A stretch of 64,000 nucleotides of DNA from the NCBI GenBank assembly GCA_003990765.1, contig RBNJ01000006.1, positions 1 to 64,000 on the forward strand. The letters are read 5' to 3'. A model generated the notes under the pieces. The model was not told the origin of the DNA, made no database searches, and saw only the letters and a list, made by a program, of their open reading frames with translations. Numbering within the stretch: the first letter of the stretch is position 1; every line of letters begins with the position of its first letter. Below, in pieces: positions 9,302 to 64,000 of this stretch. Both the position numbers and the translations under genes were made by a program. The DNA comes from Jimgerdemannia flammicorona (Eukaryota).

Positions 9302-10776
9302 TGTCACATAGTGGTTGCTGAGTTCCTCAAATATGCCAGTTTCTCTTCAAGGTGTATCTCTTAGACTAACTCAAGTTTGTTATAAGCAAGTTCTTATTGA
9401 AGTGCCTTCCAAAGGTCATATAGTCCTCAAACTTCTTATCTTTAACTGTCTTGTTATCTCTTAGATTGCTTGCAAGGAAGTATGTATAAGTGAAACCAGA
9501 ACTAACTTTATTTCAGAGGAAATAAGAGGGATATTTATACAAAATATAATTCAATAGTTGCTAAGATATAAAGCTAAATATAATTTCCAATAACTAAAAC
9601 TACTTAAGTTCTAGGATTGGTACTGATGGTTGTATAGGTTCAGAATGCTGGTATAATTCAGTGTCACATCAGAATACCAGTGCTGGAACAATTTCGCATC
9701 ACCTCAGAATACCAGTGCTGGCATTATCCAGTATAACAAAGAACTTAAAGCAGAAAGTTCAGGATTATGGGGGCTTCATCAACATCATTACTGAAGGAGA
9801 TGAGATCTGTGAATTTTTCATTTTTACATGCTTCGATGTTGTGTGGGATGACATCATTACTAATGATATCATCACATTTGGCAGGGAAATCAGGGGCTCT
9901 CCAATCTATGAGGTTCTCTTCCACAAAATAAGGGACAAATGTGGGGTCTTGTGGAGATCTAACCTGGATGCTTGGGCCTTGAAATACTGAGATCAATCCT
10001 TGCAGAAATTGGTCTGGGTTGTCCTGGAGGATAGGATGCCAGAAGTCTTCTACTTCATCACTATTGAGGGTGATAGTGAACTGGGCTTCTGTAGCCACTC
10101 TGGCTTCTAGTGCATTGTTATGGCAGGATGACAGGTCTCTGAAATCTGAGACTCTAACATACTCCAAGTTGGGGATTGACTATGGTGCATGCCTGAAGAT
10201 CTGATAGATCTTCTTAGCTGTCCTCATTTTACATATATCTATAGGAGTGGCATCTTGTAGCTCTTGAGTGCTGGCCTGTGGGAACTCCTGGTAGAGGATG
10301 TTTCCTATTTTGTACTCCTGCCATATTTGAAGGCATTCAGTGGCAATGGTGATCCTTGTTTCCATTTTATAGTGATAGAGGATAAAGTGATAGAGATCTG
10401 CAGTATCCAGGTTAACACTAGGAGTCCTTCTTGAGCAGGTCCTCATGGCTCTTCTGATGTCTTGGAACATCCTTTCCTTGACCAAGATACTTTGGTGGTT
10501 CCTTGATCTTGAGGTTTGGCAAGCAGCAGGCATTTTATTTGTAGTAAGTCTTTGAGCTATTTTGGGATTGGTGGTTCTTATTGGTTGCTGCTACTGTGGT
10601 TCCTTGATCCTTCTTTTATATTCTTCAGGATGCTTGTACTGTGGTCACAATGACTTACAGTTGGTCATCATTGCTCATCTCATATGCTGTATGATCTCCT
10701 TGTGCTCCGATCTGGTGACTTGTGAGAAAAGGTTGTCTCTTGTGCTGATGTCATCATTTCTGAAGTCACTGTTACA
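9302..10776 (-). mobile_element. Solo LTR, Gypsy family B, carrying an ORF in U3
   Basis: TG...CA termini, 4-bp TSD ATAT; removing it restores the host RT frame. Homologous to the LTR at 18241-21219, which is followed by PBS-gag-protease. Confidence 0.88.
9745..10776 (-). pseudogene. ~344-codon accessory ORF in family B LTR U3 (unknown function)
   Basis: One frame from the first LTR base to 9745 that includes track ORFs 10180-10533 and 9745-10167. The four internal stops are TGA/TAG explainable by C>T. Conserved at protein level in 18520-19200. Confidence 0.75.
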
Positions 10777-18240: not shown

Positions 18241-19661
18241 TGTAATAATATATATCTTCAAAATCAGTAATATCAGAATTCAGAAGACTGCCCAGACTTT
18301 GTAAACCACCAATTGCAAATTATGACTCAACCATAACTCATCTTGATTATAAGAATATCTATATCTGAACTTATAATAATTAATGATGACCTCAGTAGTA
18401 TACTACCCGAAATCAGATGACTTTATACTCTAAACTAAAGAAGAAGACCCTTAAGATATAAAAGAAGTAATTAGAAAAAATTATAAGATATAAAATAAGA
18501 GACCTACTATACAAATATATATCTGCTATCTGCCAAATAGTAAATCAGTTCAAGAGTAAATATTTACTATTATTAAAAGAGCCATTAGGTTATATATAAG
18601 AAGGACCCCAAGCCTGAACCTCTATATAAGAGACCTCTACCACTATACTCTCAACTACTGTAAAATGGAAATAAGACCATTACTACTAAGTATCTTTAGA
18701 TATAGTAAGAATATAAAAAAAAAACATTACCTTTACTGAGAATTTTTATAAATTAGCTCTCAAGAAATTGTAGATATTACTTGTATAAATAGATATGAAT
18801 AGAAATTGTTATCAGATCTTTAGATATATATGCTGGACTATTCTCTATCTAGAATATATGAAAGTCTCTAATATTTAAGAACTGATGAGCTACCATGAAG
18901 ACTACTTTGAAGAAATGGTCACAGAAGAAGTCCAATCTACTCTCATAGTCAAGAGTGATGAGGTTCAAGACCTTTGAAACTCTATCCTAGAGAAAAATTC
19001 AGACCAATTTATCTATAGTTTAATTATACTATTTTAAGGCCCTCTCTTAAGAGTCTGTTTCTCTTAGAATTCCACATATATTTCTTACTTTATGGATGAC
19101 AAAACTATTAACTAGAGACCCTAAGAGCCAAATGACTACATATTCTTTAATGATATTATCAATAAGGATATTATTAACAAAACAACTTAGAGAATAGTGG
19201 TGACCCACTTATTTTGCTAAAAGACAATATCAATAACTTTCTAGAAAAGTCTAGAGGCTTACTTTCTTCACTCTCAAAGCCCCCCACTGACTTCAGTATA
19301 ATTGTAAAGAATGCTGAAAATAATTTGGCCAGACCTCTTGAAGAGAAGAAGAATGAGAATGATATAATCCTCATTACTGAATTTTAAGTTAAATGAGAAT
19401 AGATCCATTAGTCAAATTGAGTAAGTGAGTTAGTTAGTCACCTAGATTCCAAAACTATACTAATTAGTATTTTCTAGTAATTATAAGTTATAACCAATTA
19501 TCTAGTCTTATATATAGTCTGAAAACTATATAAATACCTCTTTGATCTATAGTAAATAAACCTCAGTCAATTGGTTTGCAATACTAACTTAAGTTCTGAA
19601 AGACAAGAAAGTCAAGTATAAGAACTTTAGAAAAAAAACTCCAAGAGCTAAAGAATTACTC

Positions 19662-27998: not shown

Positions 27999-28029
27999 GC
28001 TGGGGTCTCTATTGCAACATTCCTTCAAA

Positions 28030-31541: not shown

Positions 31542-31555
31542 GGGTGGGGGCTGGG

Positions 31556-31779: not shown

Positions 31780-31867
31780 TGGGTCTACAGGGCATTGATT
31801 GAGGGTTTGGGGTGACATTGTATTGTTAGAATTATAGACAGCAGTAATAAAGGGCAGTCTAAGGGAC

Positions 31868-31932
<65 letters not shown>

Positions 31933-32519
31933 TGGATAACTTGAAATTGGTGGCTTATTTCTTAAGTAGCAGATTTCTCTTCAAAAGGCAGTAAAGTTCT
32001 TCCTTGAACTTTGGTGGCAAATCTTCAGGCTTATCTGACAAGTAAACCAAAAATGTAACAAACTCTTCTTTGTATTAGAAAGTGGACTGGAGTGGAAAGG
32101 GGACCAATGTTCGATCTTTAGAGACTTTTTTGGTATTTGTATTTTAGACTGAGGTTTATTCAATCTTATCTTTAGGGTATTTTATATATTGTGGTTGCTA
32201 TCTGGTTGATATCTGGATAATTATAGATTTACTATTTCTGGTAATATTTGCATATATCCATAGGACATAAGTATATCCACAGTATATGAGTATGTCTGCA
32301 GGACATGATTGTGTCTGCAGGATATGAGTATATCTATCAGACACAGGTGTGTCTTTAGGATACAAATAAACAACTCTTATTCAGCATCCTGGCTAATTAT
32401 AAGTACGATGTGCATGAGTAACTATACTATGCTGAGAGTTCATATCATCTGGCTTTATTATACTATTTGCTTGCCACATCAGCCCCTACTGAAGGATGGT
32501 CTGTCTCAGACTATTCTAT

Positions 32520-33038
32520 AGTTATATATCATCCCAATAAGTATAAGCAGCTTCTACATCTATATCTGTTCCATCATCTTCATTATCTGTACTATGTTCA
32601 CTCCATTCTAAAGACTGTTCTTCTTTCTTAGAAAATAGGATCTCAACTTAGTAAATGATACTGAGGTAGGTGGGCAGGGTCATTCTTTAGAGATCATTTA
32701 GGGAGAACTGGGCCTGGATTAGAGCCGAAGGGTTTTATTTATAAATTGTATATAATCTTTCTACAGTGGTAGTATTCCTTCTGTTCAGGCCAGTGGTATT
32801 GTAGACATAGGTCAGGTCTGAGAGGGGAAGATTCTGCAATTGTTCTCCAATTACATAGTAGGTCTACAGCTGGTGGACCTGGAGTAGTCTCTTGGCCAGA
32901 GTGAGGTTTTCTTGATGGACCTGGATTCTTTAGAGATATGTTCCATTGGGCTCTCAGAACTGTGACAGGAGAACTGGTAGAACTTGGAGAGAATCAAGGA
33001 CAAGAGTCTGAAGGCAGTTGTCAATTCTCTGGTTCATA
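32520..33038 (-). pseudogene. Accessory ORF downstream of integrase, family C copy 2
   Basis: MNQRIDNCLQTLVL...TYYVIGEQLQNLP...ERLYTIYK*NPSALIQAQFS...; colinear with 53032-53547. Confidence 0.75.
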
Positions 33039-40778: not shown

Positions 40779-41201
40779 TAGTGCTCCCAAATGAGTCAAA
40801 TCAATTCGAATCGAATCGAATTGAGGGTTAAACGAGTTGAATTGAATTGGGATTTTTCAATTGGAATCAATTCGAATTGAATCAAAAGTCAAATCAAATA
40901 GAGTGTCTAATTTGAACCCTAATTTTCAAAATGCAATAACTCAGTGTAAACTCATCCAAATCTAACGTACCATAGCTTGTTAGAATCACATTAATATGGT
41001 GAATCTAACAAGCTAAAATATGTTAAATTTGGATGAGTATTCGTCGAGTTATTACATTTTGAAAATTAAGGTTCAAATTAAACTTCGAATCAAATTGGAC
41101 CTTTGATTCAATTTGAATCAAATCAAATTGGACCCTTGATTCGATCAAATCAAATCGAGTTTGGGCCAAATTTGATTTGATTCGATTCATTTGGAGCACT
41201 A
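40779..41201. mobile_element. MITE copy 2 (hAT-like, foldback)
   Basis: TIRs TAGTGCTCCCAA / TTTGGAGCACTA; perfect 8-bp TSD AAGAGGAC (40771-40778 / 41202-41209). Confidence 0.92.
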
Positions 41202-44316: not shown

Positions 44317-46119
44317 GATATTTGAGCTTACTTTACTTAAAATACTCCTTGTGATCAGTATACTATCAGATCTGAAAATCCATCAAATAGATATTAAGAC
44401 AGAATTTCTGAATATTGATATAGATACTAAACTATATAACTGTCAACTGCAAGAATATAAAAAAGGTAATCTTGTATACAAATGATGTAAAGAACTATAT
44501 GGTATCAAACAAGTAGTATAACTATCAAGTAAAAGAATTGATAAATATCTCCTTGATAATAGATTTACTTGCTATGAAGCAAATAATTGCATATATATCC
44601 AGTACTATAATAATAGTAGTATAGTCTTTATTAGTATCTGGATTGATGATATAATTATTATTATCAGCAAAAATAAGCTTAATAGAGTTAAAAAAGCTAT
44701 ATGCTGAGAGTTCAAGATAATAGATATGTGTGATGCATCCTTTCTTTTGAGGATATCTATTATATATAATATAAATATTATGACAAACCAGAATGTACCA
44801 TCTGAATTATACCTTAGCTAGATGACATGAATACACAGCATAGTAACCAGTAACCATTGCTACAGAAACTGTATAAATAGTCAGACTATCAGATAAGGTA
44901 TATCTGTGCAGGACCTGCACACCTGTGCTGGACCTACACACTTGTGCTGGACCTGCACAACTTGCCATAGATAGCAAATCTATAGTTAGCCACATAGTAA
45001 CCAGATAGTAACCAACTTGTATAAATTACTCCAGAGATAAGAGTAAATAAACCTCAGTTCAAAATACAAACCAAAGAAGCCTCTAAAGATTGAGTATTGG
45101 TCCCTTATTCCACTCTGGTCTACTTTCCAATACAAAGATTGATTTGTACACTTACCAGACTAAGCCTGAAGATTTGCTGTCAAAAGTTCAAGGAATAACT
45201 TTGCCACTTTTTGAAGAATTCAAGTTTTCACTGCCATTCTTACCACAAGCCAGTCTTTCTGATGTAACTTTGCAGTGGAGCCAGTCTATGATATAACCCT
45301 GTGCAAACAAAGTCAGTCTTTGATATAACTTACCAAGAATCCTAGTTAATTCCCAGTTGAAGCCACTGATTTAAGAGAATCTGTGTCATCTGCTATTTCC
45401 AAGTTATCTGCCATATTTTCAGTTGAAGCCGCTGTTTTCAAGAAGTCTGCCAATTCAGGAGAATCTGCATCATCTGCTGTTTTCAAGTTATTCACATTCC
45501 CAGAAGAACCCATGCTGCCTGAGCTATTATTTTCAGAAGAATCCTATTTGCGCCATCTGAGTAGTATTCCCAATTAAAGCTGAATCTGTGACATCCAAGT
45601 TGGTTGTCCCCAGTGAGCCAGAGTTATCAAGTTATCTACTGCCAGGATAATTCCCAGTAAACCTGCACCCAAATCGAGTTATCTATCAAATTATCAGAAT
45701 GACCCAAATAAGGAATCCACTTGCACTATACAAGATCGGCATATAGAAATTGTATAAGAAGAACCACTAAATTGTCAGACCATTATGCACAGAGATCATT
45801 ATGCTACACAGAAATCACTTGCTACTCAAGAAGGAAACCGCTTGTACTACATACAAATTCTGCCATTCCCAGTTGACCCAAGAAGGAAACCCATTCACAA
45901 ATCGCTGCTACACCCAGAGAACTATCCCAATTAGGAAATCAACACACAAATCACTTGCAGATATCCAGCTTTGACTATTATATATACCACTAAACACCAA
46001 GGACCTCAGGAATCTTAGAATATTTTGTTGCTTTTTGACAAAGTAACTGGGGGCTCAAGCCAAACTACATCAACCCCCAATCTTGTAATTTGCCTCCATT
46101 GAGCCAGGCATGTTACATT

Positions 46120-46137
46120 TGGAGGCTCAACTAGGAA
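46120..46137 (+). promoter_or_regulatory. Putative PBS, tRNA-Pro-like
   Basis: TGGAGGCTCAACTAGGAA resembles the tRNA-Pro PBS TGGGGGCTCGTCCGGGAT mostly by transitions. Confidence 0.5.
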
Positions 46138-46175
46138 GATTTTAAAATCAATATGACTTTTCAGCACAAGAACTC

Positions 46176-47700
46176 ATGGTCAAACTAGATATATTTGATA
46201 CAACACCAATCTCTGCTACTACAGAAGAACCAGTTATCACTAGCATTTGGATAGGAAGAGAAGTAATCACATCAAGACTTGTTGACTACCATGCATCAGA
46301 AGGATCCCAACCAGAACCAAAAGGTAGTACAGCTCGAAATCCCCAACCAGATCAATCAGACAATACAGGCAGCCCTGCTAGAGATTTTGGAGAACTTGCA
46401 CAAGAACTAGAAGACCTTATCACATGGACCCAATACTTTACAGCCAGACACCCCACACCAGTCCCACCAATCTCACCAATAGAACCCCTACCACAACCCC
46501 TTGCAGAACCAGAAGTAGCTCCTACAAGAATACCTAGACCTATTCCACTCCATCCAAGGACCAGAACACCATCTTCAAGATATCCAAGCACCCCCATCTC
46601 TAGTGACAGTTCAGAAAGTGAATCAGAATCAGAATCCAAACTTGAACCAGAATCAGAGAAAAGTGATGCCGAAATAGCCACCTTATTGCCAACCTTTGCA
46701 GGATACCCAGAGGAAGACCCCAGAGAATTCCTTGATAGAATTGAAGGAATTGCAGCCTTGAGAAATCTCTCAGATGAAAGAAAAATTTCCATCTACAAAG
46801 CTCAGCTCAGAGAACCAGCCAGAGGAATTTTCCATCAAATAGCAAATAACCAAGATTCAGAACTAGCAAGACAGATACAAGTAGCAATGTCTGATGAGCT
46901 AGAATATGAAGCCATGGTCCACTGGCTCATTGAAAAATATGCAGGAAACAAAACCTGCCACAAGGCTCAGGAATCTATCATGTGGATGAAGATGAATCTT
47001 GGAGAATTACCCAGAACCTTCTTCACAAGAATTCAGAAGAGAATGCATTCTGCTGGGTTCAATGCCACTAACCAAGACATCATAGGTCCAATTACCTTCA
47101 TGAATGGAATTCCCCCAAATATTGCCCAGCATGTCTGCACTCTAGGCATTAGAAGGTCTGAAGAGCAAGTAGATGCAGCCCAAGGATTCTTTGATGTCAG
47201 GCAAGGAACTACCTGGAGTGATCATGACAAGAAATAAGATAAAGAAGATATCTTGGTCAAAGCCCTACAAGGACTCCTTTAAGGACAAGAAAGATCTGAG
47301 GAAAGAAGGCCAGCCAAAGAAGGAAAGAAGGACAGAAGTGAAATCTAAGACCTCAGCTCCAAGTTAGACTGATTAGTTACACAGATTGAAAAACTCACCA
47401 CACATGAAAATTGGGACTACCAAAACAACAGAGGGTATCCACCACAGAGGAGCCAAGGTTATTCACCAAGAGATAACAGGAATTACCAGCAAGAAGAAAG
47501 AAGATACCCTGCCTGAGACAGAGCCCAAGTTCAATGTTTTCACTATAGACAATTTGGACACTATGCCACTGAATGTGATAACAAAAGAAGTAACAGAAGA
47601 GACTCAGAACCACCAAACTGAAGGAATGACACCCAGTACAAGAACACTGAAGTCCATCCTGTTGAAGATTTCGAGGAAGCAAGCAACAGTAAAGACTACA
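46176..47700 (+). pseudogene. gag of element C1 (capsid-like region and CCHC knuckle)
   Basis: 353-aa ORF with LPTFAGYPEEDPREFLDRIE and TFMNGIPPNI; knuckle CFHYRQFGHYATEC at ~47535-47577. Confidence 0.85.
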
Positions 47701-47972
47701 GTGATCTAGACTTGTACCCTACCAAGGTTATCACCCGAAAGACAGTCTACCCAGCAGAAAAGAGGAAGAGACCTGTAGGAAGGCCATCCAGGAATATCAG
47801 CAGAAGAATCATTCGAGATGAAGATGAAGAACATGAGGAGGAACAAGTAGAAATACCTCTCTGAACTCCTTTACCTTTTGTTCCTGAGACAAATAAGTTG
47901 CCATCAGAAGATGAAGAAATAGAATAAGAAGAATGGGAACCTGCTGCTCCAAAGCCTAAGAAGAAGTACACT

Positions 47973-49223
47973 TTGAAGACCATGCCTAGAGACATTTATA
48001 ATAAAGTCTGGCAGAAGATTCAAGAAGCCAAGATGGAAGTCCCCCTCCTGCAGTTCTTACAATTGACACTAGCTGGGGTCCAAAACAAATTGCTGAGAAC
48101 CACCAGGTCTAGTACTGGCCAAGTTCCAATCCCACAGCAAGAACCAGCTTCCATCTCTGTCCAATCAGCTGAAAGATATATCAGCACCTATTTACATAGA
48201 GATATTGGAGGACAAAAAGCAAAAATCCTCATAGACATAGGAGCAGCTGTCTGTATCATTGCCAAACGATTCTTGGACACCCTCCAATGGCCCATTGATG
48301 GACCATCCAACCTCAGCATCATAGTAGCAGATGGAGCCCAAACTCAACCTCTTGGAGAAGTACAAAATATCACCATCTCTCTTGGACACATTCAGTTCTC
48401 CATCCCCAAAGCTGTTGTCACTGAAGCTGTCACCTATGATATGATTCTTGGCACCAACTGGATGAAGGAAATGAATGCAGTTGTTGATATCAGCCAACAA
48501 GTACTCAAGTTTGATTATCAAGGCAAGAAGTATAGGATTAAGGTGACTAGCAATGAGCAATCAAAGAAGAAGAAAAAGGTCACTATTCAGAAAGAATATA
48601 CCAGCAGTGAGGAGTTTACTACAGAAGAGGAAGAAGAATCTGAAGATGGAAATGATCCCAGACTCAATCCCCAAATCAATCTGGTGGATGACAGACCAGA
48701 AGATAATGTGTGGGCCAAGAACACTATCCCTATTACCATAGGAGCTATTGCAGGAGAAGCCAAAGGATGCCCTACATGCCTCAAGAGACACAAGTGTCCT
48801 GAGCACTCCTCCAAGATCATGGGAACAAGAAAATCGCCTGGCACAGCCTGCCCAGAATGCAGAAGGAAGAAGAAGAAATGCAGACATGTTTCAGAAACAC
48901 CTGCAACCGAAGCTACAGAAGTACAAGCAATTTGGGGCCAAGAATCATCCAAGGAAGAAGAAACTTCTGACCAAGAAGTTCCTGAACAAGAAGCACCTGA
49001 TGAAGAAGAGGTCCCTGAACTCATTCTCTGGGATGACCCTCACTGGACACCACCTGAAGACAATGACCCTTGGAATACAGAAGAAGGACCCAGTACAATC
49101 ACCATTATTCCCAAGAAAGAAACTCACCAAGAAAAGGCTTTTCAGCTAGAAAGATGTCCACACCAAATGGTCTTCTACTCTTCCCAAGACTACTGCTATC
49201 AGTGTCATCTGTTGGACCAATAA
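47973..49223 (+). pseudogene. Aspartic protease plus Cys-rich linker of element C1
   Basis: ILIDIGAAVCII (DTG in copy C2), DMILGTNWM, then CPTCLKRHKC..ACPECRRKKKKCRH and CPH..CYQC. Confidence 0.88.
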
Positions 49224-49862
49224 GAAAGACAGAGACCCCAGAGATCAGAACCCCCAACTACTCTTGCACAGTCCACCACCTTTCAAGAAGTCACCACAAG
49301 GTTACAACATTGATTTAGGGGACAAGGCCTCTTCACCCAAATAGAAATATATCCCTTGTCTACCCTTCCCCTGACCTATGATCAAGATGGGTATTGATTC
49401 CCAAGACAACAAGAGATAAATAGCCAGGAACATCATTTTCAGGCAATGGGATATTGCAACCATAGGAGACACCCTGACTGCCAAGACTGCAGACATCAGA
49501 AGATTCACCTCAGTCATGATGTTGCAGTGCACACTTTGAAGAAAGGAGAAAACTGAAGCCAGATTCGAAAAAACCAGATTCAAAAAAGTCAGACCAAGAA
49601 GCCCAGAAAAAGAATCCTTAAGATCTATGATTTGGGAGAAGACATTCTAGCTCTCATTAGACATATAACCCACCAAGGATAGGCAGAAGATATCACCAAC
49701 TTCATGGAAGCCCTTGACCCTATAGGAAGGAGGGGAATCAACTATCTCTGAGACCCCTCTACTGGAGCCAGATGGCCACACCTCAACCTTAGAGCTTGGA
49801 GGCTTTCTGCTAGTGGAGTCTCAGCCTTAGGAAAGCCTGAACTCAGCAAGGATATTGCCCAG

Positions 49863-50249
49863 TATGTTCTGCTGCACCCCAAGGCCAAACCCCCAACCAA
49901 AGTCCACCCAGAGGATATAGGATATGATCTTCGCAGCCTGGAGGATGAATCTATCAAGCCTGGAAAAACCTTCATGGTTAGAACTGGATTAGCCATACAG
50001 CCACCCCCAGAAGCTTATATTCAACTGACCTCAAGGTCTGGACTTGCCAGACAGGAGATAACTGTAGAAGAAGGAACCATTGACCCAGGATATACAGGCG
50101 AAATCAAGGTCAGCAGTGCAGAATGGCACTGAATCATTAGAGGACAGAAGATTGCTCAAGCAGTCTTCATGAAAGTCAAGACCCCACAGTTACAGGAAGT
50201 CTCTGAACTAACTGAAGGAATAAGACAAGCCAAGGGATTTGGAAGTTCA
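49863..50249 (+). pseudogene. dUTPase domain of element C1
   Basis: PPTKVHPEDIGYDL, VRTGLAI, TSRSGLA, GTIDPGYTGEIKV, KIAQAVF, KGFGSS: all five trimeric dUTPase motifs; small deletion after motif III relative to C2. Confidence 0.92.
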
Positions 50250-50669
50250 GACAGGAAAGAGGTACATCTCCTTCAAGTCAACCATCTTAAGAGGAATGTT
50301 CCCTAGCAAGTGTACCAGTAACCAGTCAGACTGCACAAGAATCTCATCCTGGAGCCCAGAGAACAAACTATCTTCGAAATCTTTGCACCACCCGACCCCA
50401 GAAACCTTTTCTTTGAAACCAAGGAAGATATCCCATATCTGGATATAGAGGGACACACATTCCCTGACAAAATGAACCCAGTACACTCCCGAGCAACCAA
50501 CCAAAGTTGGGAGACCATCATCTTACTGAAAGGAACCATCATAGGATATCTGGTGCCCTTTCTCAACTGAACTCATAGGGAAGTTTATGAACTAAACCTA
50601 TCAGGAAATAGTAAAAGGTCTCAGAAGAAAGGAAAGGCCCCTCTGCGACCCAGAAGATAGTGAAGCCTT

Positions 50670-53047
50670 CCACCAACATTGGAGAAGAACTGACACCTCA
50701 ATAACAGCAACAACTAGTAGAACTTCTCAACAAATATCAAGATATCTTCACCACTGATTATGGCAACCTGCTATACAACCCATCATATCACCACAGCATA
50801 AATACAGGAAGTGCAACACCCATCCAGCAGAAGCCCTTTAGAATACCTATCACTTGAAAACATTCAAAAAAGAGCACATTTAAGAACTCTTAGACAATAG
50901 AGTCATCCGACCCTCCACTAGCCCCTGGGCCAGCCCTATACTTATTGTACCAAAGAAAGGAGGATGGAGACTCTCCAGATACTTCAGCAGTATGGACCTC
51001 TTCACAGGATTCCATGAGATCCCCATGGACCCCAAGGACATTCAAAAGACAGCTTTCCTTGCTCTAGGAAAACTGTTTGAATACCTCCAAATGCCCTTTG
51101 GACTCTGCAATACACCCCCCATCTTTCAGAGGATGATAAATTCAGTCTATGTCTCCTTGATCCACTACTGCCTGATTATATATATGGACGATTCCAACAT
51201 CTATTCAGCGAATTTCAAAGAATACCTGCACCACCTAGAGGAATTCTTCAAGCTCACCCGCAAGAATCACTTGAGATTGAATACAAAGAAATGCTACTTT
51301 GGGAAACAGAAACTCGAATTCCTGGGATTCATGGTTTCAAAAGAAGGAACTTATGCAGACCCAAAGAAAACCAAGAAGATCAACAATTGGCCAGTACCCA
51401 AGACTCCAAAGGAAATACTATCATTTCTGATGCTAGTATCCTACTACAGAAGGTTCCTCAAGGACTTTGCCCAAATCACTGCCCTGATCTGAATCCTTCT
51501 CAAGAAAGGAATGCCATTTAAATGGACAGAATCACAGGAAAAAGCCTTCAGAGAACTCAAGAACCATATGACTACAGCACCAATCCTTGTACACCCCAAT
51601 CTACAGAAGCCATTCATCTTGTATATAAATGCTTCCAAAGATGGCCTAGGAGCAGTTCTAGCCCAAGAAGGACCTGACCAACAGCATCATGTGATAGCTT
51701 ATGCAAGCAGAGCTACCAATCAGCAGCAGGTGAACTATAGTAGCACCAAACTGGAATGTCTTGCAGTCATATGGGCAGTCATCCTGTTCAAGCATTACCT
51801 CATCAGAAAAAGGTTCACCCTGATCACAGACCATACAGCCCTCAAATAGCTATTCAATTGCAAGAAACCTGCTGGAATCCTAGTCTGCTAGATCCTTATC
51901 CTTCAGGATTACAAAATCACATTTATTCACAAAGCAGGAAAACCCACAACAATGTTGATGTACTTTCCCACCAGCCCCAATGAACCAGAAAAAGGGTGTC
52001 CTGAGGAACCACACCCTAAAAAAAGCTCAAGGAATAAGAAGATCTCATCTGACAAGAACATCAGAAAGCCCACTAAGGACAGACAAGCACAGAAGATAAG
52101 ATTCAAAAACAATATCAACATTGGCCCTACCTCAGAACCCAAGTATAAGATATCATTCAAAAATGTGATGTCTGCCAGAAGTACCAAGGAAAGAAGAACT
52201 ATCAAGTCTCTCTGCAACTGATTCCCCCATCTACTCACATCTTTCAAAGATGGGGAATAGATGTAATTGGACCTCTACCAGTTACACCAAGAAGAAACAA
52301 ATATATCCTTATATTTGTAGAACATTTGACCAAGTGGCCTGAGGCTTTCCCAATAGAAATCACAGATGCCTTAACCATTGTAGGCCTCCTCTATGGACTT
52401 ACACTCAGATATAGACCCCCAGAAGAACTCATTTCTGACAAAGGCATAGAATTCATCAATAACATAATCATAAGTTATGTCTGAATTCACAAGATCCACC
52501 TCAAAAGAATCACATCATACTACCCCCAGACCAATGGCATGACAGAGAGAATAAACCAGACCATCAAGAAAGGACTTGCCCAAGTCAATCCTACTAATTG
52601 GGACCTCTGCTTACCTGAGATCCTATGGGAAATTTGGAACACCCCTACCATCTCTACTAAACAAAAGCCATTCAAAATGATGTTTGCTAAGAGAACCAGA
52701 ACTGCTGACCATGAGAATCTTGAAGACCTCTTCAAAAAGACAGAACAGTTACATAATCAAGCCCAAGGACAGATTATCAAAGCCCAAGAAAGACAAAAGA
52801 AGTACTATAATCAAAAACAGAAGGATCAGAAGATCAAGATTGGAGATCAAGTACTAGTTTGGAGAAGTATGATTGAAACAAATTTTGCTGCCAAACTGAA
52901 ACCCAAATGGGAAGGACCTTATCTTGTATACAACATCAGAGGGACCAGCATCTATTTAAGAAGCATGAATGGATAAACCCTCAGAACACTAGTACACATC
53001 AATTGCCTCAAGATATATCTTTTCCCACATCATGAATCAGAGAGTTG
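50670..53047 (+). pseudogene. RT - RNase H - integrase of element C1
   Basis: [85 protein letters not shown]. The IDYRKLN segment is deleted near 50975 relative to C2. Confidence 0.93.
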
Positions 53048-53547
53048 ACAACTATCTTCAGACTCTTATCCTCAGCTCATTTCAATCACTACTGGTCCCC
53101 CTACCCTAATTCTGAGAAGTCAATGGGAATACTCTCCAAAAGATCCAGATTCATCAAGAGAATCTTGTCCTGGCCAGACAATTGCTACAGGTCCATCAAC
53201 TTCAGACCCACTATGCAATTGGGAAATAATTGCAGAACCTTCTAGTCTCAGAACAAACATATATCAGAAATACCACAGAACTATCAAGGAGAGATGTTAC
53301 TGCCACTAACAGACTCTACACCCTTTACAAGTGAAACTCTGCAGCTCTGATGCAAGCACAATTCTCCTGATATGATATACAAGGAATGAACCTAGCCACC
53401 TATCTGAGCATTATCAATGCTGTTGAAATCTTATTCCCTGAAAAAGAAGAAGAACCCTTAGAATGGAGTGATCATGGTATAGATGACAAAGATGATGGAA
53501 CAGGTATTGATGCAGAAGATGCTTACCCATACTAGAATGATGATTAA
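53032..53547 (+). pseudogene. ~170-codon accessory ORF between integrase and PPT (unknown function)
   Basis: ATG overlaps the integrase end in another frame; single frame with C>T-type stops; acidic C-terminal tail; protein conserved with 32520-33038. Confidence 0.75.
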
Positions 53548-54290
53548 AGGATAGTCTGAGGACAGACCATCCTTTAGTGGGGGCTGATGTGACAAACCAG
53601 GATGTACCACCTGAATTATACCTTAGCCAGATAACATGAACACACAACATAATAATCAGTAACCATTGCTGTGGAAACTGTATAAATAGCCAGACTACCA
53701 GATAAGGTATATCTGTGCAGGACCTGTACACCTGTGCTGGACCTATATACTTATACTCGACCTGTACAACTTGTTATAGATAGCAAATCTATAGTTAGCC
53801 ATATAGTAATCAGATAGCAACCAACTTGTATAAATTACCCCAGAGACAAGAGTGAATAAATCTCAGTTCAAAATACAAACCAAAGAAGTCTCTAAAGATT
53901 GAGCATTAGTCCCTTATTCCACTCCAGTCCACTTTCCGATACAAAGATTGATTGGTACACTTGCCAGACTAAGCCTGAAGATTTGCTGCCAAAAGTTCAA
54001 GGAAGAACTTCACTACTTTTTGAAGAATTCAAGTTTTTGCTGCCATTCTTACCACAAGCCAGTCTTTCTGATACAACTTCACAGTGGAGCCAGTCTATGA
54101 TATAACCCCATGCAAATGAAGCCAGTCTTTGATGTAACTTGCCAAGAATCCTAGTTAATTCCCAGTTGAAGCTGCCAATTCAGGAGAATCTACATCATCT
54201 GCCATTTCCAAGTTATCCACCATATTCCCAGTTGAAGCTGCCGATTCAGGAGAATCTGTGTCATCTGCCATTTCCAAGTTATCCACCATA

Positions 54291-54662
54291 GAGTACTCCC
54301 AAATGAGTCAAATCATTTCGAATCAAATTGAATTGAGGGTTAAATGAGTCAGGATTTTTCAATTCGAATCAATTCAAATCAAATCAAAAGTCAAATCAAA
54401 TTGAGGGTCTGATTCAAACCCTAATTTTCAAAATGCAATAACTCAGCGTAAACTCTTCCAAATCTAATGTACCTTAGCTTGTTAGAATCACATTAATGCA
54501 TTGAATCTAACAAGCTAAAATACGTTAAATTTAGATGAGTATTTGTCGAGTTATTACATTTTGAAAATTAAGGTTCAAATCGAACTTTGAATCAAATTGG
54601 ACCTTTGACTCGATTCAAATCGAATCAAATTGGACCCTTGATTCGATTCGTTGGGAGCACTA
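54291..54662. mobile_element. MITE copy 3 (hAT-like, foldback)
   Basis: TIRs GAGTACTCCCAA / TTGGGAGCACTA; 8-bp TSD CCACCATA / CCGCCATA; absent from the 5' LTR of the same element. Confidence 0.92.
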
Positions 54663-56371
54663 CCGCCATATTCCCAGTTGAAGCCGCCATTTTCAAGAAG
54701 TCCACCAATTCAGGAGAATTCACATCATCTGCCATTTTCAAGTTATCTATGTTCCCAGAAGAACCCATGCTGCCCGAGCTATTATTCCCAGAAGAATCCT
54801 ATTTACACCATCTGAGTAGTATTCCCAATTGAAGTTGAATCTACAACATCTGAGTTAGTTGTCCTCAGTGAGCCCGAGTTATTAAGTTATCTGCTACTAG
54901 TACAATTCTCAGTGAACCCACACCCAAATCAAGTTATCTGCCAAATTATCAGAATGATCCAAATAAGGAATCCACTCATGCTATACAAGATCATCATGCA
55001 GAAATTGCATAAGGAGAACTGCTAAATTGCCAGACTGTCATATACAGAAATTGTTGCACTATACAGAAATCACCTGCTACTCAAGAAGAAAACTACTCAT
55101 ACTACATACAAATTCAGCCATTCCCAGTTGACCTAAGAAGAAAACCTATTCACAAATTACTGCTATACCCAGAGAACCATCCCAATTAGGAAATCAACAC
55201 ACAAATCGCTTGCAGATATCCAGCTTTGACTATTATACCACTAAACACCAAGGACCTTAGGAATCTTAGAACATTTTGTTGCTTTTTGACAAAGTAACTG
55301 GGGGCTCAAGCCAAACTACATCAACCCCTAACCTTGTAATTTGCCTCCATTGAGCCAGACACATTACAATATATATACTATATACTTCTTATAAGTAATA
55401 TATGTTCAAACAATTCTCAAATATTTCAATATGAATAAATATAAGTCTGTCAGCACTCTTATAGATACTTTCATGAAGTTAAGAAAGCCTGATACTATTT
55501 CTGAAGATGACAATAATATATAAGCCAAAAATGATATCAAAGATATACTATATCAGTAACTAATTAGTTCTCTTATATATATATCTCATACTAGGAATAA
55601 GACCCAACATAATGTATACTATAAATAAGATAGCACAATATTCCTCCTACTATGATAATTTATATTAGAGTACCATTAAGAGAATATTTAGATATCTTAA
55701 GGATATGACATACTATATACTTATATTAAATAATAGTAATGGTGAGAGAAATAATAAGAAGAATGACATCTAACTATCTAGTATATATGATACAGATTGG
55801 GCAGGTGATCTCAATGACTACTAATCTATAACCAGATATCTATTTCATATTAGCAACCAAGAGTCTGTCATCTTATGATAAATATATATATAATTATCTA
55901 AAGAAATATTATTAATATAGACAAAATATCAGGCATTATCATTGGTAATAAAAGAAGCTATTTAGCTCTATTAAAAGAACTTGGATTCACTCAAAAACAG
56001 AGCACTATGCTATACCAAGATAATTAGTCTATAATTATACTTACTAAAAATCTGATATATTATAGTAGAATAAAATATATCAATATACAGCATTATTTCA
56101 TTTATAAATATATAGAAAACAGTGTTATATACTTGAAATATATCTCAATAGAGTACATAGTCACTGATTCACTTACAAAAGTCCTTCTAAAACTAAAGTT
56201 CAAGCTATGTATTAACAAAATGGATCTTATGAACAATATGCCAGTTTAGTAGTTAATTATGAGATACTTTTCAGGCCCTAAAAAGTCTCTCTTACTGTAT
56301 TTACATTATTTTTACATTATTTATATCCATATCTTACATTCTCATTACATCTCTTATCTATGAGTGGATTT

Positions 56372-56682
56372 TGTAGATATTTTAGATATTATAGAATACT
56401 TTTCAATCTGCAAAAATTCCTTAGATATAGGATTTTATAATAATACTTTGGATTATATATAGTTTTAGTTTTTGCATATATTATATTACTTTTTACTCTA
56501 GTTTGTATTCCCTTTTCTTTTTTTGGATTTATATATCTCATTGAGTAGGAGTGATGGAATATATAGTAACTCAATATATCAAAATATAACTTATACTATT
56601 TTATTAGATTTATGTCATTCATCAGTAATATGTGAAATATGTGACCTATGTAACTTCAATAAAGTATCTCTCTTTTATAACA
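56372..56682 (+). repeat. Probable 3' LTR of the Copia element
   Basis: TG...CA, follows RNase H and a TGAGTGGA PPT-like motif, AATAAA near its end; no partner LTR in the window to confirm. Confidence 0.5.
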
Positions 56683-57165
56683 TAATTGATTTGATAGTAC
56701 TAAGTTAAGAATAAAGTTACTTTACTATAAGACAGGACTAATATTACTATTAAGATAGATAAGTCTGTAAATAAGACTCAGATTGTAATTATATCTATAA
56801 TATAATTTAAGAAGATACTTAAGAAAGTAATATATATTTTTATTACTATTATCTAACTTAAGAAACAAAACAAGAAGCTATTAATCAATAAAAGTATCAA
56901 GTTGCTACTAGATAAATTTAAGAATATCTTTTCAGATAAGCTATCTGATCTACTACTTATATAAGAAGTAGATTATAAAATAGAATTGATCTCAGAAACT
57001 GAACCCTTCAAAAAATATTTATACTATATATTATCTCTCAAGATAGAAGCAGTCAAGAAAGAATTAGAAAACCTACTTGTCTGAGGAGTTATTCAACCCA
57101 TCAAGTTATCCTTTGGCTCACTATTTCTTTTTGTCAAAAAAAAAGAATAGAACTCTGAGAGATAT
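56683..57165 (+). mobile_element. Fragment of another Gypsy pol (linker to RT start)
   Basis: LLDKFKNIFSDKL..EVDYKIELI..VKKELENLLV*GVIQP..FGSLFLFVKKK; ends abruptly. Confidence 0.8.
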
Positions 57166-58249
57166 AGTAAGATAAAGAGTGTCAGGTCAAACTTGAAGTC
57201 AGCTATATCTCAGGAACAAATTTAGTAAAAGTAAATAAATGCCATTGAGATTTAAATTGTGGATGATAACAAAGAGCCCAATCTCAGCAAAGAGAATTTC
57301 AGCAGAAGAGGGAAAGTATTTCAGCAAAGAATATCTCGGGAGAAGAAACACGGCAAACGGAAATTTGGCAAGGGAAGGAAATCTCTGGAAACAGAAACTT
57401 GACGGGGGTGGGAAACATTGGCAAACGAAAATTTGACGGGAGAGGAAAATCTCACTGATGGAGACAAACGAAGAACTGGACAGAGCAATTTGCGTTTTGT
57501 ATGATGAGAGCGAAAGCAAAATCCTTCAAAACTATAGAATATTCTAGGTTTCAACCGGATGGCACACGACATAGAAAAGATCGTGAATAACCACCAAGAT
57601 TGTGTGCGCACACAGGTCACTCGTTTGGGTCGAACCACGACGTCATCACACGAGAGTCGGCACTTGATCGTGTGGCTTGGCACACGTGATCTTTTACCCT
57701 ACATGTAAGCCCATTATGAACGTTCTGACGCAGTCCCTTCTTTTCCTTTAAGCATTACGTAGCACTCGCTGGCAACATATATAAATATCCTCGAGGAAAG
57801 AATAAAGCTCAGATATATTATAACGCTAGTTCTGCGTCAAGAATCGTTTCTGTCACATCGCTTATTCTACACGTGTGCGCTCATTCCAACCTTTGACGCA
57901 TGTGGCGGAGCGAGGATAAACGCTTACAGAACTAGTATTATGGACTTTCAGCGAGTAGGAAGTGAATGCACTTGGCACGAGACGTCCTATCTTTCACCTT
58001 CCACCTGTTTAGTGTTCGTATGACAACCACTGCCGATTTCATAAACCATGACAGCCACGTGAGTCTCCGTTTTGTAACGTGGTAAATGACGCCACAAAGA
58101 CACGCGCAATAAACGTCACATAGATGAGTCACGAAATGACGTCACGAAACACGATTAAGACGTCACGCAATAAATCACTGTCAAAGAACGCGGGTTCATA
58201 TATAATTATTTTGTGATAATGGTACAACTAATACGACGCGTGTTCGAAC

Positions 58250-58560
58250 ATGTACAATAATAGATACCGAACTTCTGCCTTACATCACCTATAACTATTA
58301 TTTTTGTGGCAAACAATTCTCGAAATCGTGTACGCGTTTTGATGACGTTCTGTTAATCGTAATTGTATGTCAAATTTTGGAAACGTTCACTTTTCAGCAA
58401 GATCTTTACCACATTCAACTATTCTCATGCAATCATGGTAGTGGCAAACTTTCAATCCAAACCGTCTTATAAGTGTCTTGCACAGGTTTTCACCGCCGCA
58501 CTCTTTGAATTCAAGCTCCGAATTGCACGCCACTAAAGTGAGGTGCGCAACCATTTTGAC
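58250..58560 (-). pseudogene. Possible RecQ/SF2 helicase C-terminal domain relic
   Basis: NLCKTLIRRFGLKVCHYHDCM, a possible short GT..AG intron, then LFATKIIVIG / KAEVRYLLLY with a frameshift; loosely matches YHAGM..VATxAFGMGIDKPDVRFVIHY. Confidence 0.25.
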
Positions 58561-61500
58561 AGTCAGCCACACGCGTCTTTTTCGCTTTAATGGCGCGCCC
58601 CGCACGGGCCATTGTGGCTGGGCCGCAGCCTTGCGGAACCGACTTCACTCTAAACCGGTTTCGATACCCTTAGTGGGGCCCAGATCAGGGCTCTCCTAAA
58701 TAGAGCGGCGTAACGCTTTGGGATGTATATGCCTTCTGCGGACGGAGTGCTGATGTATGGGCTCACCGATTCGCCAAGATAGTGTTTCTCGGGAATCCGG
58801 GATCGCGGCATCTGGAACAGCGCATAATTCGCGCAGTTACTGGGACCGAGAGGCGCGAATCCAAACGGGCTGCATGTGTTCGTAACCGGGAACAGTTTCC
58901 GGCCTCGGAACGCACATTGGCCCATTACGGCATTCCCAGCCAATCCAGCCCAAATCCTACCCTTCCTTAGAGGTCATGAGTGTGAAACCAAGCTCCGCAT
59001 ACTGTCCACAAGACCTGGCATTGGAAGGCTCATGGACATTCCCTGGAGGTCACAAGCACGACACCGAGGGTGGCATTTTCAGAGCCTAACCGTCGAGAAC
59101 AGGTGCTCGGAAACACATGAGCGTGTGATCGCTTCCAAGCCCCGGATCTGCCCCTTTCTTTGAGGTCATACCAAGCAAGCTGCGCATCCCCGGAACCCCA
59201 TCCTCGAGGGCAGGTGCCCTTCTCGAAATGTACATGACATCATGGTGGCTTTCCCGGCTCCCAATTCAACCCTTCCATTGAAGTCATAGGCACGTACTCA
59301 ATGCCGCAGCTCTGCGTGACAAATAGCCCTCCGGTATTTTTGGGGAGCGCCGAGGAGCTCCGTATGCAAACCTGCCGGATCATCCGTCCATTTCTTTAAT
59401 CCGATTCGTTCGGTTGAAAATGGATTGGATTGCCTAACCGAAGTAAAGTTCGGTTCGTTTTGGAGGGGCAGCGGAAGCCCGGAACGGAGACCGTAAATAG
59501 GAACATTATATGCTTGTAAATCAAAATTTGGAAAGGAAACAGTAGAATTATACAATACTGTTGTCATTTGAAACAATCGTGTATTTTGTATGCCGGTTTC
59601 ATTTAAATCGTGTAGCACCTTGTTGTTCTTATGTCATGCCTCGGCGTTGTCTCAGGTTTCATGCCGACCCATTCCTGTGATTCCCGCCTAACGTAAAGAA
59701 TGCGCAGCAAAACGATGATGTGTGCACTATGGATCGGTGGGGATATTTGGTTGTAGTCGCCACGAGTTTCTGGGGGTTAATGTAGGCTCGAGGTGTGAAG
59801 AAAGTAAAGCAAATTTATTTAATTTTCGTCGAATCTTGCCTAGTATTCACATTTATTATAAGCGATTTGCAATTGCCGTGGTGATTTGTTATAGAAAATA
59901 GGACGCTTGGCACAATCCGAGTAAAAAACGGCAAAATGTGCCGACAAATAACAGCTGATGAAACCAATAGTTTTGGTGTTCGTTTACGTTTTATTTCTCA
60001 CGATCGACTGCCTCGGATGTGATATTACCGTTCCGCCGGGAAATGCAAGGAAACTGTTTCCCTCACAACAATATCCGTCGGCTTGGTCCCTCGGACCAAT
60101 TTGGTACCGAATTGATTAAATCGATTTGAAAAGGCCGTGGAATAATAACAAGCTTTGAAATACGCTCCTTCAACTTGAACAATGTTTATACCAAATAAAT
60201 GAAAATATTAAAATTCCTTCGTACAATACACGGTATACGTTTTCTATCATTCGCCTCGCGCGATGGTCACGCGCACCGCTGAAAAATATCCTAATATGTT
60301 ATTCGCAAGCGAAAGCTCATCTCGGTACCGCCCTTCCCTATCCTTGGAATATGTTTGATGCTAAAGTAATATTCCTGTAGCACTTCAAAACTGTTGCTAA
60401 TGACTCCGCAATCACCCGAGATTTTGGAGATGGAAGAAATTTTCAAACGTATAAAATGACGGACAATTAGGTGTCTTCCTCGGAAGAACTTGTACCGTAT
60501 AAAATGGCGGGCAATTAGGTGTTTCCCTCTTGCTTCATCATCTCTCGCTCCAACATGCATCACGTCACTAAAGCGCAGAGATTTATCTTGTAGGCTCTTC
60601 GGAAGCAAATTCTAGTCACAATCTGCCGGCAATCCCTGTTCAAGTTTCGAAATAGATGTAATTATCTGACTTGAGTGATCCCCATTTCGCCATCAGACCG
60701 TCAATTGAACAAGCCTCAACGTGGACCACAGGAGACGTCTCAACACTTGACCATCTAGTCACTCTCAGCCACGCCGCGAGTATCAAGGTCATTTGGGCTT
60801 TAAAGGTACCCGCGAAGAATTGGACGCATAATGTAGATAGTTGTCAGCAGTGAACTCCATTCGCAAATCCAATTTTGACGAGATTGAATCTATTGGGAGG
60901 TAAGTTGGGAATATCGATAAATAACCTGATGCCATTTTGTACTATTGTTGATAGAGCTGCGTAGTATTTCCTTTTCCAAGATGCTCATAGAAATAAAATT
61001 TCCTTCGCCGTTGAATTTTAAATTTTCCACTAGAACAGATTTCCTCTCGTAGCCGTCGGAACGTTTACAGCGTTCGTTCGTGAGGACACTACTCACGACC
61101 AGTACTCATTCAAAAATACTTTAGCCGTCATTCATGTGGCTGTGGCCGAATTGATTGCTCCTACTGAGGATTTTTGTCTCCTGCCTCCCCGTAATAAAAT
61201 GAGGATTTAAAATCGACGTAACTGCATTGTGAACCCTATTTGATGATTCTACAAAATATATTATCTGTTAAAAATTTGATTATTCAATCATTGAGAAAAC
61301 CACCCCTTTGAAGCCAATGCAGTCGAATCCCTCTCTTTCACCCAATTCGTATGCTCATTCAAACCGACTTTCCGAGAATGTGTCCTCATGGAGTTGTGAT
61401 GCAAATATATTTTTCTCATAAAGATCGGGTCGGGTCGGGTTGAGACACTCTAATTTTGTGTTAAAATCTGATCACAGGACACTAAAAACGAGTTTCGCCC

Positions 61501-64000
61501 ACTTATAACTCGATCGTGCGGCCGACAGTATATCTTTGGACATATTCCAAGTCGTCACCCCACCTAAACGTTTTTTTCCCAACGTACTGGCCTTTCCAAT
61601 TTATCAACTTTGGATCGTCGTAGGGGATACAATTTTTGGAGTACGGATATACAAGAAGGTATAGAAAAATAGCGCACCCACAGAACGGTACCCGCCTTCG
61701 GGGTTCGGGAAGATCTCTTAGATTGCAAATTCTTCCTCGCCTGCTCATCCCCGCTCTCTTTGAAAACCAGGCTCTGCTTTCCATGACTGAAGCCGCTGTC
61801 GTAAAAACCCGAGGTTTAAAACGATATCGGATCCCCCAGTTTTCAGCTTACATCATAATCCCATAAGAACACATCTAGATTTTTGGTATTTTGTATTTCT
61901 CTCAGGTCGTCGGTTCGAATTAGCTTACGAAGGCCCCCAAATGTTGAAAATTCGTTGAGCAACCAAGATGACGACCCATACACTAACGCTTATTTAGCTC
62001 AATGAATTGGGAACCACCCAAGACCAAGATGGATGAGAAAGTGTTGGATCGCGTCAATAGGACTAAGTTGCGGAACACTACTCGTTCTCTTGTTTGACTT
62101 ACCTTTGATCGTTAAGATTTTACAAGAGGATTGGTATTTTGAAGGAGTGTCATTATCCGGAATTTTTGAGACAAGCTCAAAAATCAAGATTTTTGGGGAG
62201 AAGGTAAATGAAGTTTAGTCAATGGAAAAAAAATACTTCAGCTCCTATATAATATTCTTCGACCTGTCGAGAGACAAGTTCTTCAATCGCAAAATATTGG
62301 GAGGGAAGATAGAAAAGCGCCTCAAAAAAATAGGCAGTGAATTCCATGAAACTCACTTGATTTCCAGCTTGTTTCGGCTGAAAATTTTCGTCAAGTACCT
62401 TCTTCGATCTTTAATATAAAAATAATACTAAAGTCTTTTCCTGCCTATTTCGATTTTCGTTTAATAACTGTCCGCACCGAGATTGGAAAAGACTCTTCAT
62501 AAACAACACGAACTTTTGCGCGTTCGAGTAATGTTTCTTTTGATCTAAAATTTTGTGCTTTAAAGAAAGCGAACAAGATAGAGCTTCGCAAAGTTGTATC
62601 TGTAGAAAATCACACACGTTGAGATGTCGATCGCACTATTTTAAAGCACACGCTTAAGTATCGATTTTTCCCGTTACGTTATAATAAACACGCACGTCTC
62701 GACCTGTATGGGCCTGTTGATACTTCAAGACCGCTTGGGTCATAATGGCATAAAGCTTAAATTTCGGGCGAGAGAAATTTTTGGCCTGGTTGTGTCTATG
62801 TATGGTTGCACAATTTTTACCTTTAGCCATTGGAACAGGCAGAAAAATGGAAGGGACGGCGAAAGAAGGCATTATATGACAAGGGCTCTTCCACAGGCGC
62901 GAGTTAACGCCCTGAAATATTGCCATTATGAATATCCACTCCTTCTATGCTGCTTCACATACCGATTTCTCTGGCGTTGCGTCTTCGAACCTTTTAGTCA
63001 TCTCCGGCCTAGCGGGCCCTTCGAAATTCAAGTAATTAGTTGGTGTGACCGACGGTTGCACATGACGATGAACGTCAATGTAATATATTCGATTTACCCA
63101 AAACAGATGTCCCCATAAACGTGCAAAGTCAATCTCCCAAACGACGGCATCCGCACCACACGTGGTGGTCTTGTGTAAAAATTTATTCTACTCTCAGGAA
63201 TAGCGGGCCGCATGGCTGATGTAATCAGCACGGAAAATGTCATCGGCACGATGTCCCCGAATCGTACTTATCCATGTGGGAAAACGTGTTCTTGGCACGA
63301 TAGAATTGTTTAATTTTGTTGGTATGGTTAAGGCTCGCATGTTATCGATGTCGACGAAAAGCAATACTAACGTTATATGGAACACAACGACCTGCCAAAT
63401 TTCTGGTCAATAGCATTCTCAGGCTTGGTGACTACATCATGAACATATACCATACGGCCTTTGATTGCCAATAGAGGTTACTCCGCACTAGCCAATTACC
63501 CAACAAGGAACCCCATAGTTGTCACGTTTGCAGGATCGAACTGTTAATTTTATTTTATTTTATTTCGGAACCTTCCTCGTTTCTCCCATGCGTTTGCGAT
63601 AATATATTCGAAATTTCGGCGTGCCCGAAAACCTAGTCCCCTAAGCTAAGGTGAGACGTGTCCAAAATAGGAGCACGTGAAATAATGACATATCACACGA
63701 GACACCATAGATTTTCGGGCGGAAGTGCGGAAATCGAAATCTGGAATCAAAAGTAGATTGAAGGCTATCCGTGGCTGACGGCGGTTCTCCGATTTGCAGG
63801 ACCAAGGAAATATTTCAATAAAATAGCATAAATATATATTAAAAAAAGAGTGCGTTGATATCGAAATCGAGCATCTTGTTGAGAAAGATTGTGTTCCGGA
63901 TCATTCGATCATGCACAGCCTTGATTCAAGAACAATATACGATTCGTAAAAATCTATTTTTAGGCCGTATTTTTTACATTTATCAAACGAAATAGAAATG

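Follow-up and report, generated by a model that had tools for sequence, protein, structure and literature searches.

The DNA considered here is a 64,000-nucleotide stretch of Jimgerdemannia flammicorona (assembly GCA_003990765.1, contig RBNJ01000006.1, positions 1 to 64,000; hereafter the window). Two Ty3/Gypsy retroelement families in the window, B and C, each carry an accessory gene. In family C, this gene is the third open reading frame (ORF3), located between pol and the 3′ long terminal repeat (LTR). In family B, it lies inside the LTR itself. Our preferred reading, to which we give a probability of roughly 60%, is that B and C share one accessory gene, and that in B the LTR boundary has moved upstream of it. 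Homology of the two genes, taken as a separate question, is judged highly probable once the DNA is considered along with the proteins. A preliminary description of the window had proposed a shared gene that changes position; collinearity of the DNA makes this the best reading, although the profile–profile match between the two proteins is not significant.

Ty3/Gypsy family C has a genuine third gene, and the plus-strand frame at 53032..53547 is a copy of it that is no longer intact. There are two copies of family C in the window, C1 and C2, which are ~80% alike. The C2 frame lies at the position first described and scores 252 bits against a profile of the C protein, with P0007 and P0008 as its closest intact relatives; its counterpart in C1 is on the minus strand (33037-32522) and is 60.6% identical to it at the amino-acid level. 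The description held that both copies keep an open reading frame, and this fails: each copy has 6 internal stops in addition to the terminal stop. Two of these internal stops, at codons 28 and 101, are common to C1 and C2, and the intact relatives have Arg, or Arg/Trp, at these sites. There is no indel inside the frame between the two copies. The codon run quoted as an example of their divergence is present as given (CTC TAC ACC CTT TAC AAG versus TTA TAT ACA ATT TAT AAA).

There are several indications that ORF3 is a real gene. First, C1 ORF3 has five relatives on short metagenome contigs, two of them intact (171 and 172 amino acids; 62-65% identity). Second, a length-unrestricted hmmsearch of 1.84 billion representatives with the C profile gave 6 matches at E ≤0.001, five of which are family members, including the more distant P0023; the other, a repeat protein of 671 residues (E 3e-4), is taken as spurious. 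Scans of viral_contigs with C and with B gave no relatives. Third, differences between C1 and C2 ORF3 fall 50/30/76 at codon positions 1/2/3 (transversions 16/9/26), and this third-position excess indicates coding constraint while the two lineages diverged. Thus, the gene is conserved in both window copies and in database relatives. It also evolves quickly. The expectation that ORF3 would be more diverged than pol was borne out: nucleotide identity between C1 and C2 is 0.72 for ORF3 (0.70 gapless), as compared with 0.81-0.85 for gag, protease, reverse transcriptase (RT), RNase H and integrase. The ratio of transitions to transversions is 2.2 in ORF3 and 4.1-7.7 in the other element blocks, with 44 transversions in 502 aligned bases of ORF3 as against 7-37 per block in gag/pol (~2-4% of aligned bases).

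The layout around ORF3 is compact. The integrase frame of C2 passes an early stop, reaches the usual C-terminal motif, and ends at a TGA (53046-53048) that lies 14 nt past the ORF3 ATG at 53032, giving a 17-nt overlap between two different frames (53031..53048, plus strand). The layout of C1 is identical. Alternatively, ORF3 may be no gene of its own, with a +1 shift within the overlap extending pol at its C terminus. The position of the pol stop relative to the ORF3 ATG in both copies fits such a shift, and a database protein, P0010, reads into ORF3 from upstream. The upstream part of P0010, however, is in a non-integrase frame, and 8 of the 9 family proteins begin at one conserved Met. Moreover, no pol-fused protein is found among the 6 matches of the length-unrestricted search, and the B homologue stands alone within an LTR. 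A pol extension is thus very improbable, and ORF3 is treated here as a separate gene.

At its other end, C2 ORF3 stops at 53545-53547, ~40 nt short of the purine tract and the LTR start. The polypurine tract (PPT)/3′ LTR junction, with the first bases of the LTR, spans 53584..53622 (plus strand), with the repeat starting at ~53588-53590; a related contig from public sequencing run X2 matches from exactly 53588, and the sequence before that point is unlike. Hence, the env-like position that had been described holds in both C2 and C1, with ORF3 located after integrase and before the PPT and 3′ LTR, on the gag-pol strand. This is the position of the sense additional ORFs known as aORF-3S. Two sequencing runs, each with a small share of matching sequence and with no RNA run listed beside them, were compared with 51500-54000 and cover mainly the LTR start (bins 53516 to 54000). 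Upstream of this, the same two runs give scattered light cover at 51836-52087 and one 46-base piece at 52975-53020, which stops 12 bases before the ORF3 start. None of the matches listed from the two runs falls on ORF3, which has no bearing on expression.

The family B gene occupies a different position, as the preliminary description had stated: it is truly inside an LTR, upstream of the core TATA and AATAAA motifs. One copy is in a solo LTR, B1, which is 1475 bp long (9302..10776, minus strand). Its ends are TG..CA and form an inverted repeat that is imperfect, and it is flanked by a 4-bp target duplication (ATAT at 9298-9301 and 10777-10780). The limits of B1 can be confirmed from its host sequence. 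B1 sits in the RT of another element, element A, whose N-terminal RT motif ends at 9285 and whose next motif resumes just past 10776; removal of B1 together with one ATAT makes the element A RT frame continuous. The accessory gene lies at 9745..10533 (minus strand), has one internal stop, and is 81% identical to the intact protein P0001; the frame is open from 10590. A TATA-like motif at 10613..10623 (minus strand), recognized from sequence only, lies 80 nt 5′ of the ATG, and the LTR core (9507..9541, minus strand) follows the gene with a second TATA at 9541-9532 and AATAAA at 9512-9507. The order in B1 is therefore TATA-like motif, ORF, second TATA, AATAAA. Elsewhere in the window, at 18548..19181 (plus strand), lies another copy of the B gene, B2, which is heavily decayed.

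Database relatives show that the B gene, too, is a real gene. Six relatives are known, with intact forms of 247, 271 and 323 residues, and a profile search added one further fragment. A metagenome scan with B gave a single match, a 1345-bp contig (L001) with upstream DNA too short to include the LTR start. The L001 protein is 54% identical to that of B1, and the contig keeps the same motif order, including the upstream TATA-like motif, which in this case is 64 nt before the ATG. Differences between B1 and L001 by codon position are 90/66/133. The label "U3" for the location of the B gene is a reasonable one given the positions of the motifs; an ORF at 10533-9745 inside an LTR at 10776-9302 would have the U3-embedded arrangement of sag and nef, an arrangement that applies to family B only.

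The strongest argument for a shared gene comes from DNA rather than protein. The stretch of L001 that follows the ORF aligns with the C2 LTR across a TTAGCCATATA..TGTATAAAT..AATAAACCTCAG core, with scores of 51 and 57; none of 300 shuffles attained the first and none of 1000 the second. The C2 core is at 53792..53872 (plus strand) and is homologous to the B LTR core; it includes TTAGCCATATA, TGTATAAAT at 53827-53835, and AATAAA at 53855-53860. A multiple alignment places the core in all B and C copies. In addition, B1 retains a relic of a C-type PPT/LTR-start junction at 9650..9672 (minus strand), 75 nt past its stop codon: 23 of 23 bases are identical (11 + 12) around one 16-nt gap, and 0 of 1000 shuffles reach the score. 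The counterpart string in C2 spans the PPT/LTR-start junction and begins 39 nt past the ORF3 stop. A tandem duplication of an 18-nt unit, with starts ~34 nt apart, lies between the B1 stop codon and the relic (9662-9730, minus strand), and this accounts for the longer spacing in B1. A further candidate, derivation of the first 250 nt of B from the 3′ end of the C integrase, was rejected because shuffles matched it in 198, 335, 319 and 228 of 500 cases.

Families B and C thus have a common order of gene, old LTR start and core promoter. This order argues that B and C are sister families, that the B gene occupies the ancestral ORF3 locus, and that the B LTR boundary moved ~1.1 kb upstream. The similarity between the B and C proteins, taken alone, is suggestive, and it is the collinearity of the DNA that tips the balance in favor of a shared gene.

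There is evidence from the proteins on both sides. The C hidden Markov model (HMM) places all five B proteins tested in the register that had been aligned by eye (C residues 60-108, up to 137), with E values (Z=1) of 5e-5 to 0.026. The number of whole-sequence shuffles that reach the real score is 2, 3, 28, 84 and 275 of 4000 for the five proteins, a shuffle P of ~5e-4 to 0.07, and that of window-wise shuffles is 0, 4, 35, 201 and 324. In the reciprocal comparison, the B HMM was run against four C proteins, and 4, 9, 12 and 185 of 4000 shuffles reached the score. A six-frame scan of the window with the B HMM gave C1 ORF3 as the sole non-B match at E <1. Lastly, the helices predicted by AlphaFold2 (AF2) for B and C agree in order and length (17, 35-37, 7-10 and 16 residues, with similar loops) and fall in the register of the alignment. 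The by-eye alignment is recovered as to register by BLASTP, hhalign and hmmsearch, and its statistical weight is modest. A second similarity, between C residues 6-26 and the B block DQFLQGL.., scored −3.3 bits, is not significant, and may reflect internal repeats.

A number of results weigh against a shared gene with a displaced LTR boundary. The profile–profile comparison that the preliminary description had proposed as a check came out negative, with hhalign P values of 0.02-0.14 and a probability of at most 2.3%. Two versions of the alignment gave E 0.081 and P 0.02 with the 2.3% probability, with -M first, 1 of 250 column shuffles reach the score, and under the other match-state setting the best register differs and 18 of 200 column shuffles reach it. 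BLASTP of the intact B and C proteins gave E ≥0.58 for 16 of 16 pairs, in inconsistent registers. Among the window copies, BLASTP gave E 7e-4 for B against C1 and E 27 for B against C2. There is no B protein among the 6 matches (E ≤0.001) of the C profile in the 1.84 billion representatives. The empirical P values are ~tenfold weaker than those of HMMER, and the family members that were tested are not independent. The helix runs predicted for the two proteins agree, as noted above, but the AF2 models themselves are poor, with a predicted local distance difference test (pLDDT) of 53 for C and 36 for B. On the DNA side, the relic test is not significant for L001, over its first 110 nt (270 of 1000 shuffles). 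There is no full-length B element in the window, such that the presence of the gene in both LTRs and the new PPT are unseen; the search for a B internal part at 19700-26100 (plus strand) found just an aspartyl protease, at ~24060-24330. Finally, the B gene would lie in R, not U3, if the upstream TATA were the main promoter.

Much of this evidence would be expected if the B and C genes were unrelated, each having been captured independently at one permissive spot between pol and the U3 core, with their similarity due to chance. The hhalign, intact-protein BLASTP and library-wide searches were all non-significant. The B proteins are also 75-150 residues longer than those of C, and their best-conserved block has no C counterpart. 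Independent capture does not readily account for a single register in 5 of 5 B proteins, for reciprocal HMM comparisons with an empirical P of 5e-4 to 3e-3 (best five tests), or for a six-frame scan in which the only cross-match is the right ORF. Nor does it account for flanking DNA that is both collinear and homologous. Hence, independent capture is considered unlikely, and descent from one gene is favored.

How might a gene pass from the internal region of an element into its LTR? Under the shared-gene reading, the B and C genes would derive from one ancestral accessory gene, having in common a helical N-terminal part of ~75-105 residues; B would have an extra conserved block of ~60 residues, and both families an acidic tail studded with aromatic residues. 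The C-like layout would be ancestral. In B, the site of plus-strand priming would have shifted upstream by the distance given above, taking the U3 boundary along and placing the gene in every LTR. With the conserved TATA motif before the gene and the LTR AATAAA after it, each LTR would then be complete as an expression unit. Expression in C would instead be by a subgenomic RNA, or by termination–reinitiation at the overlapping stop and start codons.

Taken further, the LTR of B, and perhaps of A, could be a free-standing gene, with its own TATA, a 250-320-codon ORF and a poly(A) signal, such that 5′, 3′ and solo LTRs would all supply a trans-acting factor to the whole family. This is a speculative extension, and we consider it rather doubtful. 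With regard to element A, each of its 2-kb LTRs has a decayed frame (2867-3019, plus strand; ~14170-14330, plus strand), and there is a third at 43964-43740 on the minus strand. The frame is kept in all three LTR copies and has a weak likeness, in an unchanged register, to the core of the C protein (i-E of 0.66 and 1.7 window-wide; Z=1 values of 9e-4 to 3e-3; hhalign P of 0.08 to C and 0.56 to B). Element A may, on these similarities, be another family whose LTR holds the gene, the third in number.

What might the protein do? The view of ORF3 as a conserved, predicted-helical accessory gene without a known domain stands, as does the absence of a transmembrane-like stretch: the highest 19-residue Kyte-Doolittle mean among six intact proteins is 1.14. 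With no membrane segment and no match to a Pfam env family, the protein lacks the features of a retroviral or errantiviral env. Pfam searches with decayed and intact proteins gave nothing at E ≤1 except three sub-threshold chance rows, with no chromo match in ORF3 or its intact relatives of the kind expected for the C-terminal chromodomain of a chromoviral integrase. A sequence search of the PDB gave tissue-factor rows for C (E 0.13-0.85) and none for B, and these were judged to be chance. In the ESM Atlas, P0007 has no kin, with a structural TM of at most 0.37.

Over the last 40 residues, the net charge of the B proteins is −10 to −11. That of the C proteins is −16 to −18 at full length and −9 in P0023, which is truncated. 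The acidic tails of both families embed tryptophan, tyrosine, phenylalanine and leucine, and the B N-terminus is Arg-rich (+5 to +8). The tail composition of six proteins fits an acidic-tail transactivator (Tas-like) module, a fit of composition only. A nuclear regulatory protein is our guess by analogy, and a hesitant one. Binding of a partner or of nucleic acid would fall to the helical part and, in B, to the Arg-rich N-terminus as well. The acidic, hydrophobic tail would work in activation or as an adaptor, much as in foamy-virus Tas.

An equal rival to this guess is that the gene product antagonizes host genome defense, whether silencing, cytosine methylation or repeat-directed mutation. 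The fast evolution of the gene fits a role against host defense, in that it evolves faster than pol in elements that are under heavy CpG-directed decay. The same fast evolution also fits relaxed constraint, and Pfam shows no similarity to any known suppressor. We consider an anti-defense role unlikely on present evidence, and the regulator guess is retained alongside it.

There are parallels for this gene among retroviruses. The mouse mammary tumor virus (MMTV) sag and lentiviral nef genes are accessory genes in, or overlapping, the U3 of the 3′ LTR. The B gene is like them in position only, with its coding sequence in the putative U3, where each LTR would carry it, and at the 3′ end of the genomic RNA. 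It differs from them in having no sequence relation to the Sag or Nef families (Pfam), in belonging to a Ty3/Gypsy element without env, and in having its own TATA-like motif. Foamy-virus Tas/Bel1 is encoded by a small 3′-end gene, has an acidic C-terminal tail, and is expressed from an internal promoter. The likeness here, which is one of analogy, is in the acidic tail, the 3′-end gene and a possible dedicated promoter upstream within the element; there is no sequence or fold support for a relationship, and no recognizable DNA-binding domain in the proteins described here.

There are also parallels among retrotransposons. Plant and insect elements are known to have a class of extra ORFs on the sense strand, aORF-3S, located between pol and the 3′ LTR (Vicient and Casacuberta 2020, PMC7264820), and the family C gene resembles them in strand and position, in both copies and in its relatives. 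The members of the class described there are mostly env-like, whereas ORF3 lacks a membrane segment or env features; moreover, the B gene is inside the LTR, a position that PMC7264820 does not mention (neither "within the LTR" nor "inside the LTR" occurs in it). Antisense extra ORFs are also known (PMC7264820, PMC8365987), including brtn of the fungal element Boty/BcGypsy1 in Botrytis cinerea (Porquier et al. 2021, PMC8365987, citing Zhao et al. 2011). As described in that source, brtn is likewise an extra gene near the 3′ end of a fungal Gypsy element that is absent from standard gene annotation; it is antisense, whereas the genes described here are sense. Lastly, different types of bdelloid retroelement share additional ORFs (PMC5408684), so that one accessory ORF common to different retroelement families has a precedent, albeit in other organisms and with other proteins; the abstract of that work does not mention an LTR-embedded position. 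A full-text literature search for LTR-encoded proteins gave MMTV only, among the matches listed, in a search by set phrases that cannot show absence.

What are the implications of a shared, displaced gene? Little is understood of the extra genes that LTR retrotransposons carry, which have barely been catalogued outside plants and insects. First, the gene described here would represent a conserved, fast-evolving protein family without a known domain in two, possibly three, related Gypsy lineages. Second, the DNA record shows how the LTR can take in a gene that was once internal. This would be a concrete case of the path proposed for the acquisition of U3-embedded accessory genes by retroviruses. 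Third, solo LTRs may still be expressing a factor that acts on the family or on host defense. If the LTR is indeed a gene in its own right, then this state arose from a C-like ancestor simply by movement of the plus-strand primer site upstream, and a clade of three lineages shares the gene. Solo LTRs would then be a distributed reservoir of a retrotransposon regulator or counter-defense protein rather than inert scars.

The window as a whole is, by self-comparison, a nest of decayed LTR retroelements; the ORFs at 56300-64000 provided no usable gene. The C2 element is on the plus strand, with a 5′ LTR at ~44779-46117, an internal part at ~46118-53587 and a 3′ LTR at 53588-55368, as delimited by comparison of its two LTRs; C1 is on the minus strand at 32471-40064, with its ORF3 at 32522..33037. 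A tblastn search with pieces of C2 located gag, protease, RT, RNase H and integrase in both copies, and the ESM Atlas confirmed Retrotrans_gag in the gag protein and gave nothing beyond it. C1 retains ~88 nt of RT (35097-35186) without a counterpart in C2 (at 50976/50977); the missing piece falls after the N-terminal RT motif and before the conserved block that comes next, so C2 is internally deleted as well as stop-ridden. The 3′ LTR of C2 is ~440 bp longer than its 5′ LTR. The extra piece (54158-54290 and 54287-54664) includes a 66-nt tandem duplication and recurs at 40780-41145 and 22856-23204, in both orientations. Element A is a third Gypsy element, AT-rich and on the plus strand, with its LTRs at 2488-4539 and 13795-15849. 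Its internal part includes dUTPase, RT, RNase H and an integrase SH3 domain; the dUTPase domain is in pol (8185-8490, plus strand; Pfam E 4e-12), between the protease region and RT.

The base composition of the window is also uneven. Two G-rich blocks, at 26000-31900 and 6700-8100, have a GC content of ~0.43-0.53; on the plus strand, their GC skew is extreme, at +0.4 to +0.77. The second block is within element A, and the two match at 68.8% between 6970-7164 and 26414-26608. The ratio of observed to expected CpG is 0.0-0.13 in every retroelement segment, as compared with 1.18 in the non-repeat DNA at 57000-64000; the intact metagenome contig L001 is in the low range as well, at 0.10. Such a deficit in the repeats suggests that the host has a mutation or methylation process that is directed at CpG and specific to repeats. 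In the older copies, A and B2, TpA/ApT is also >1.

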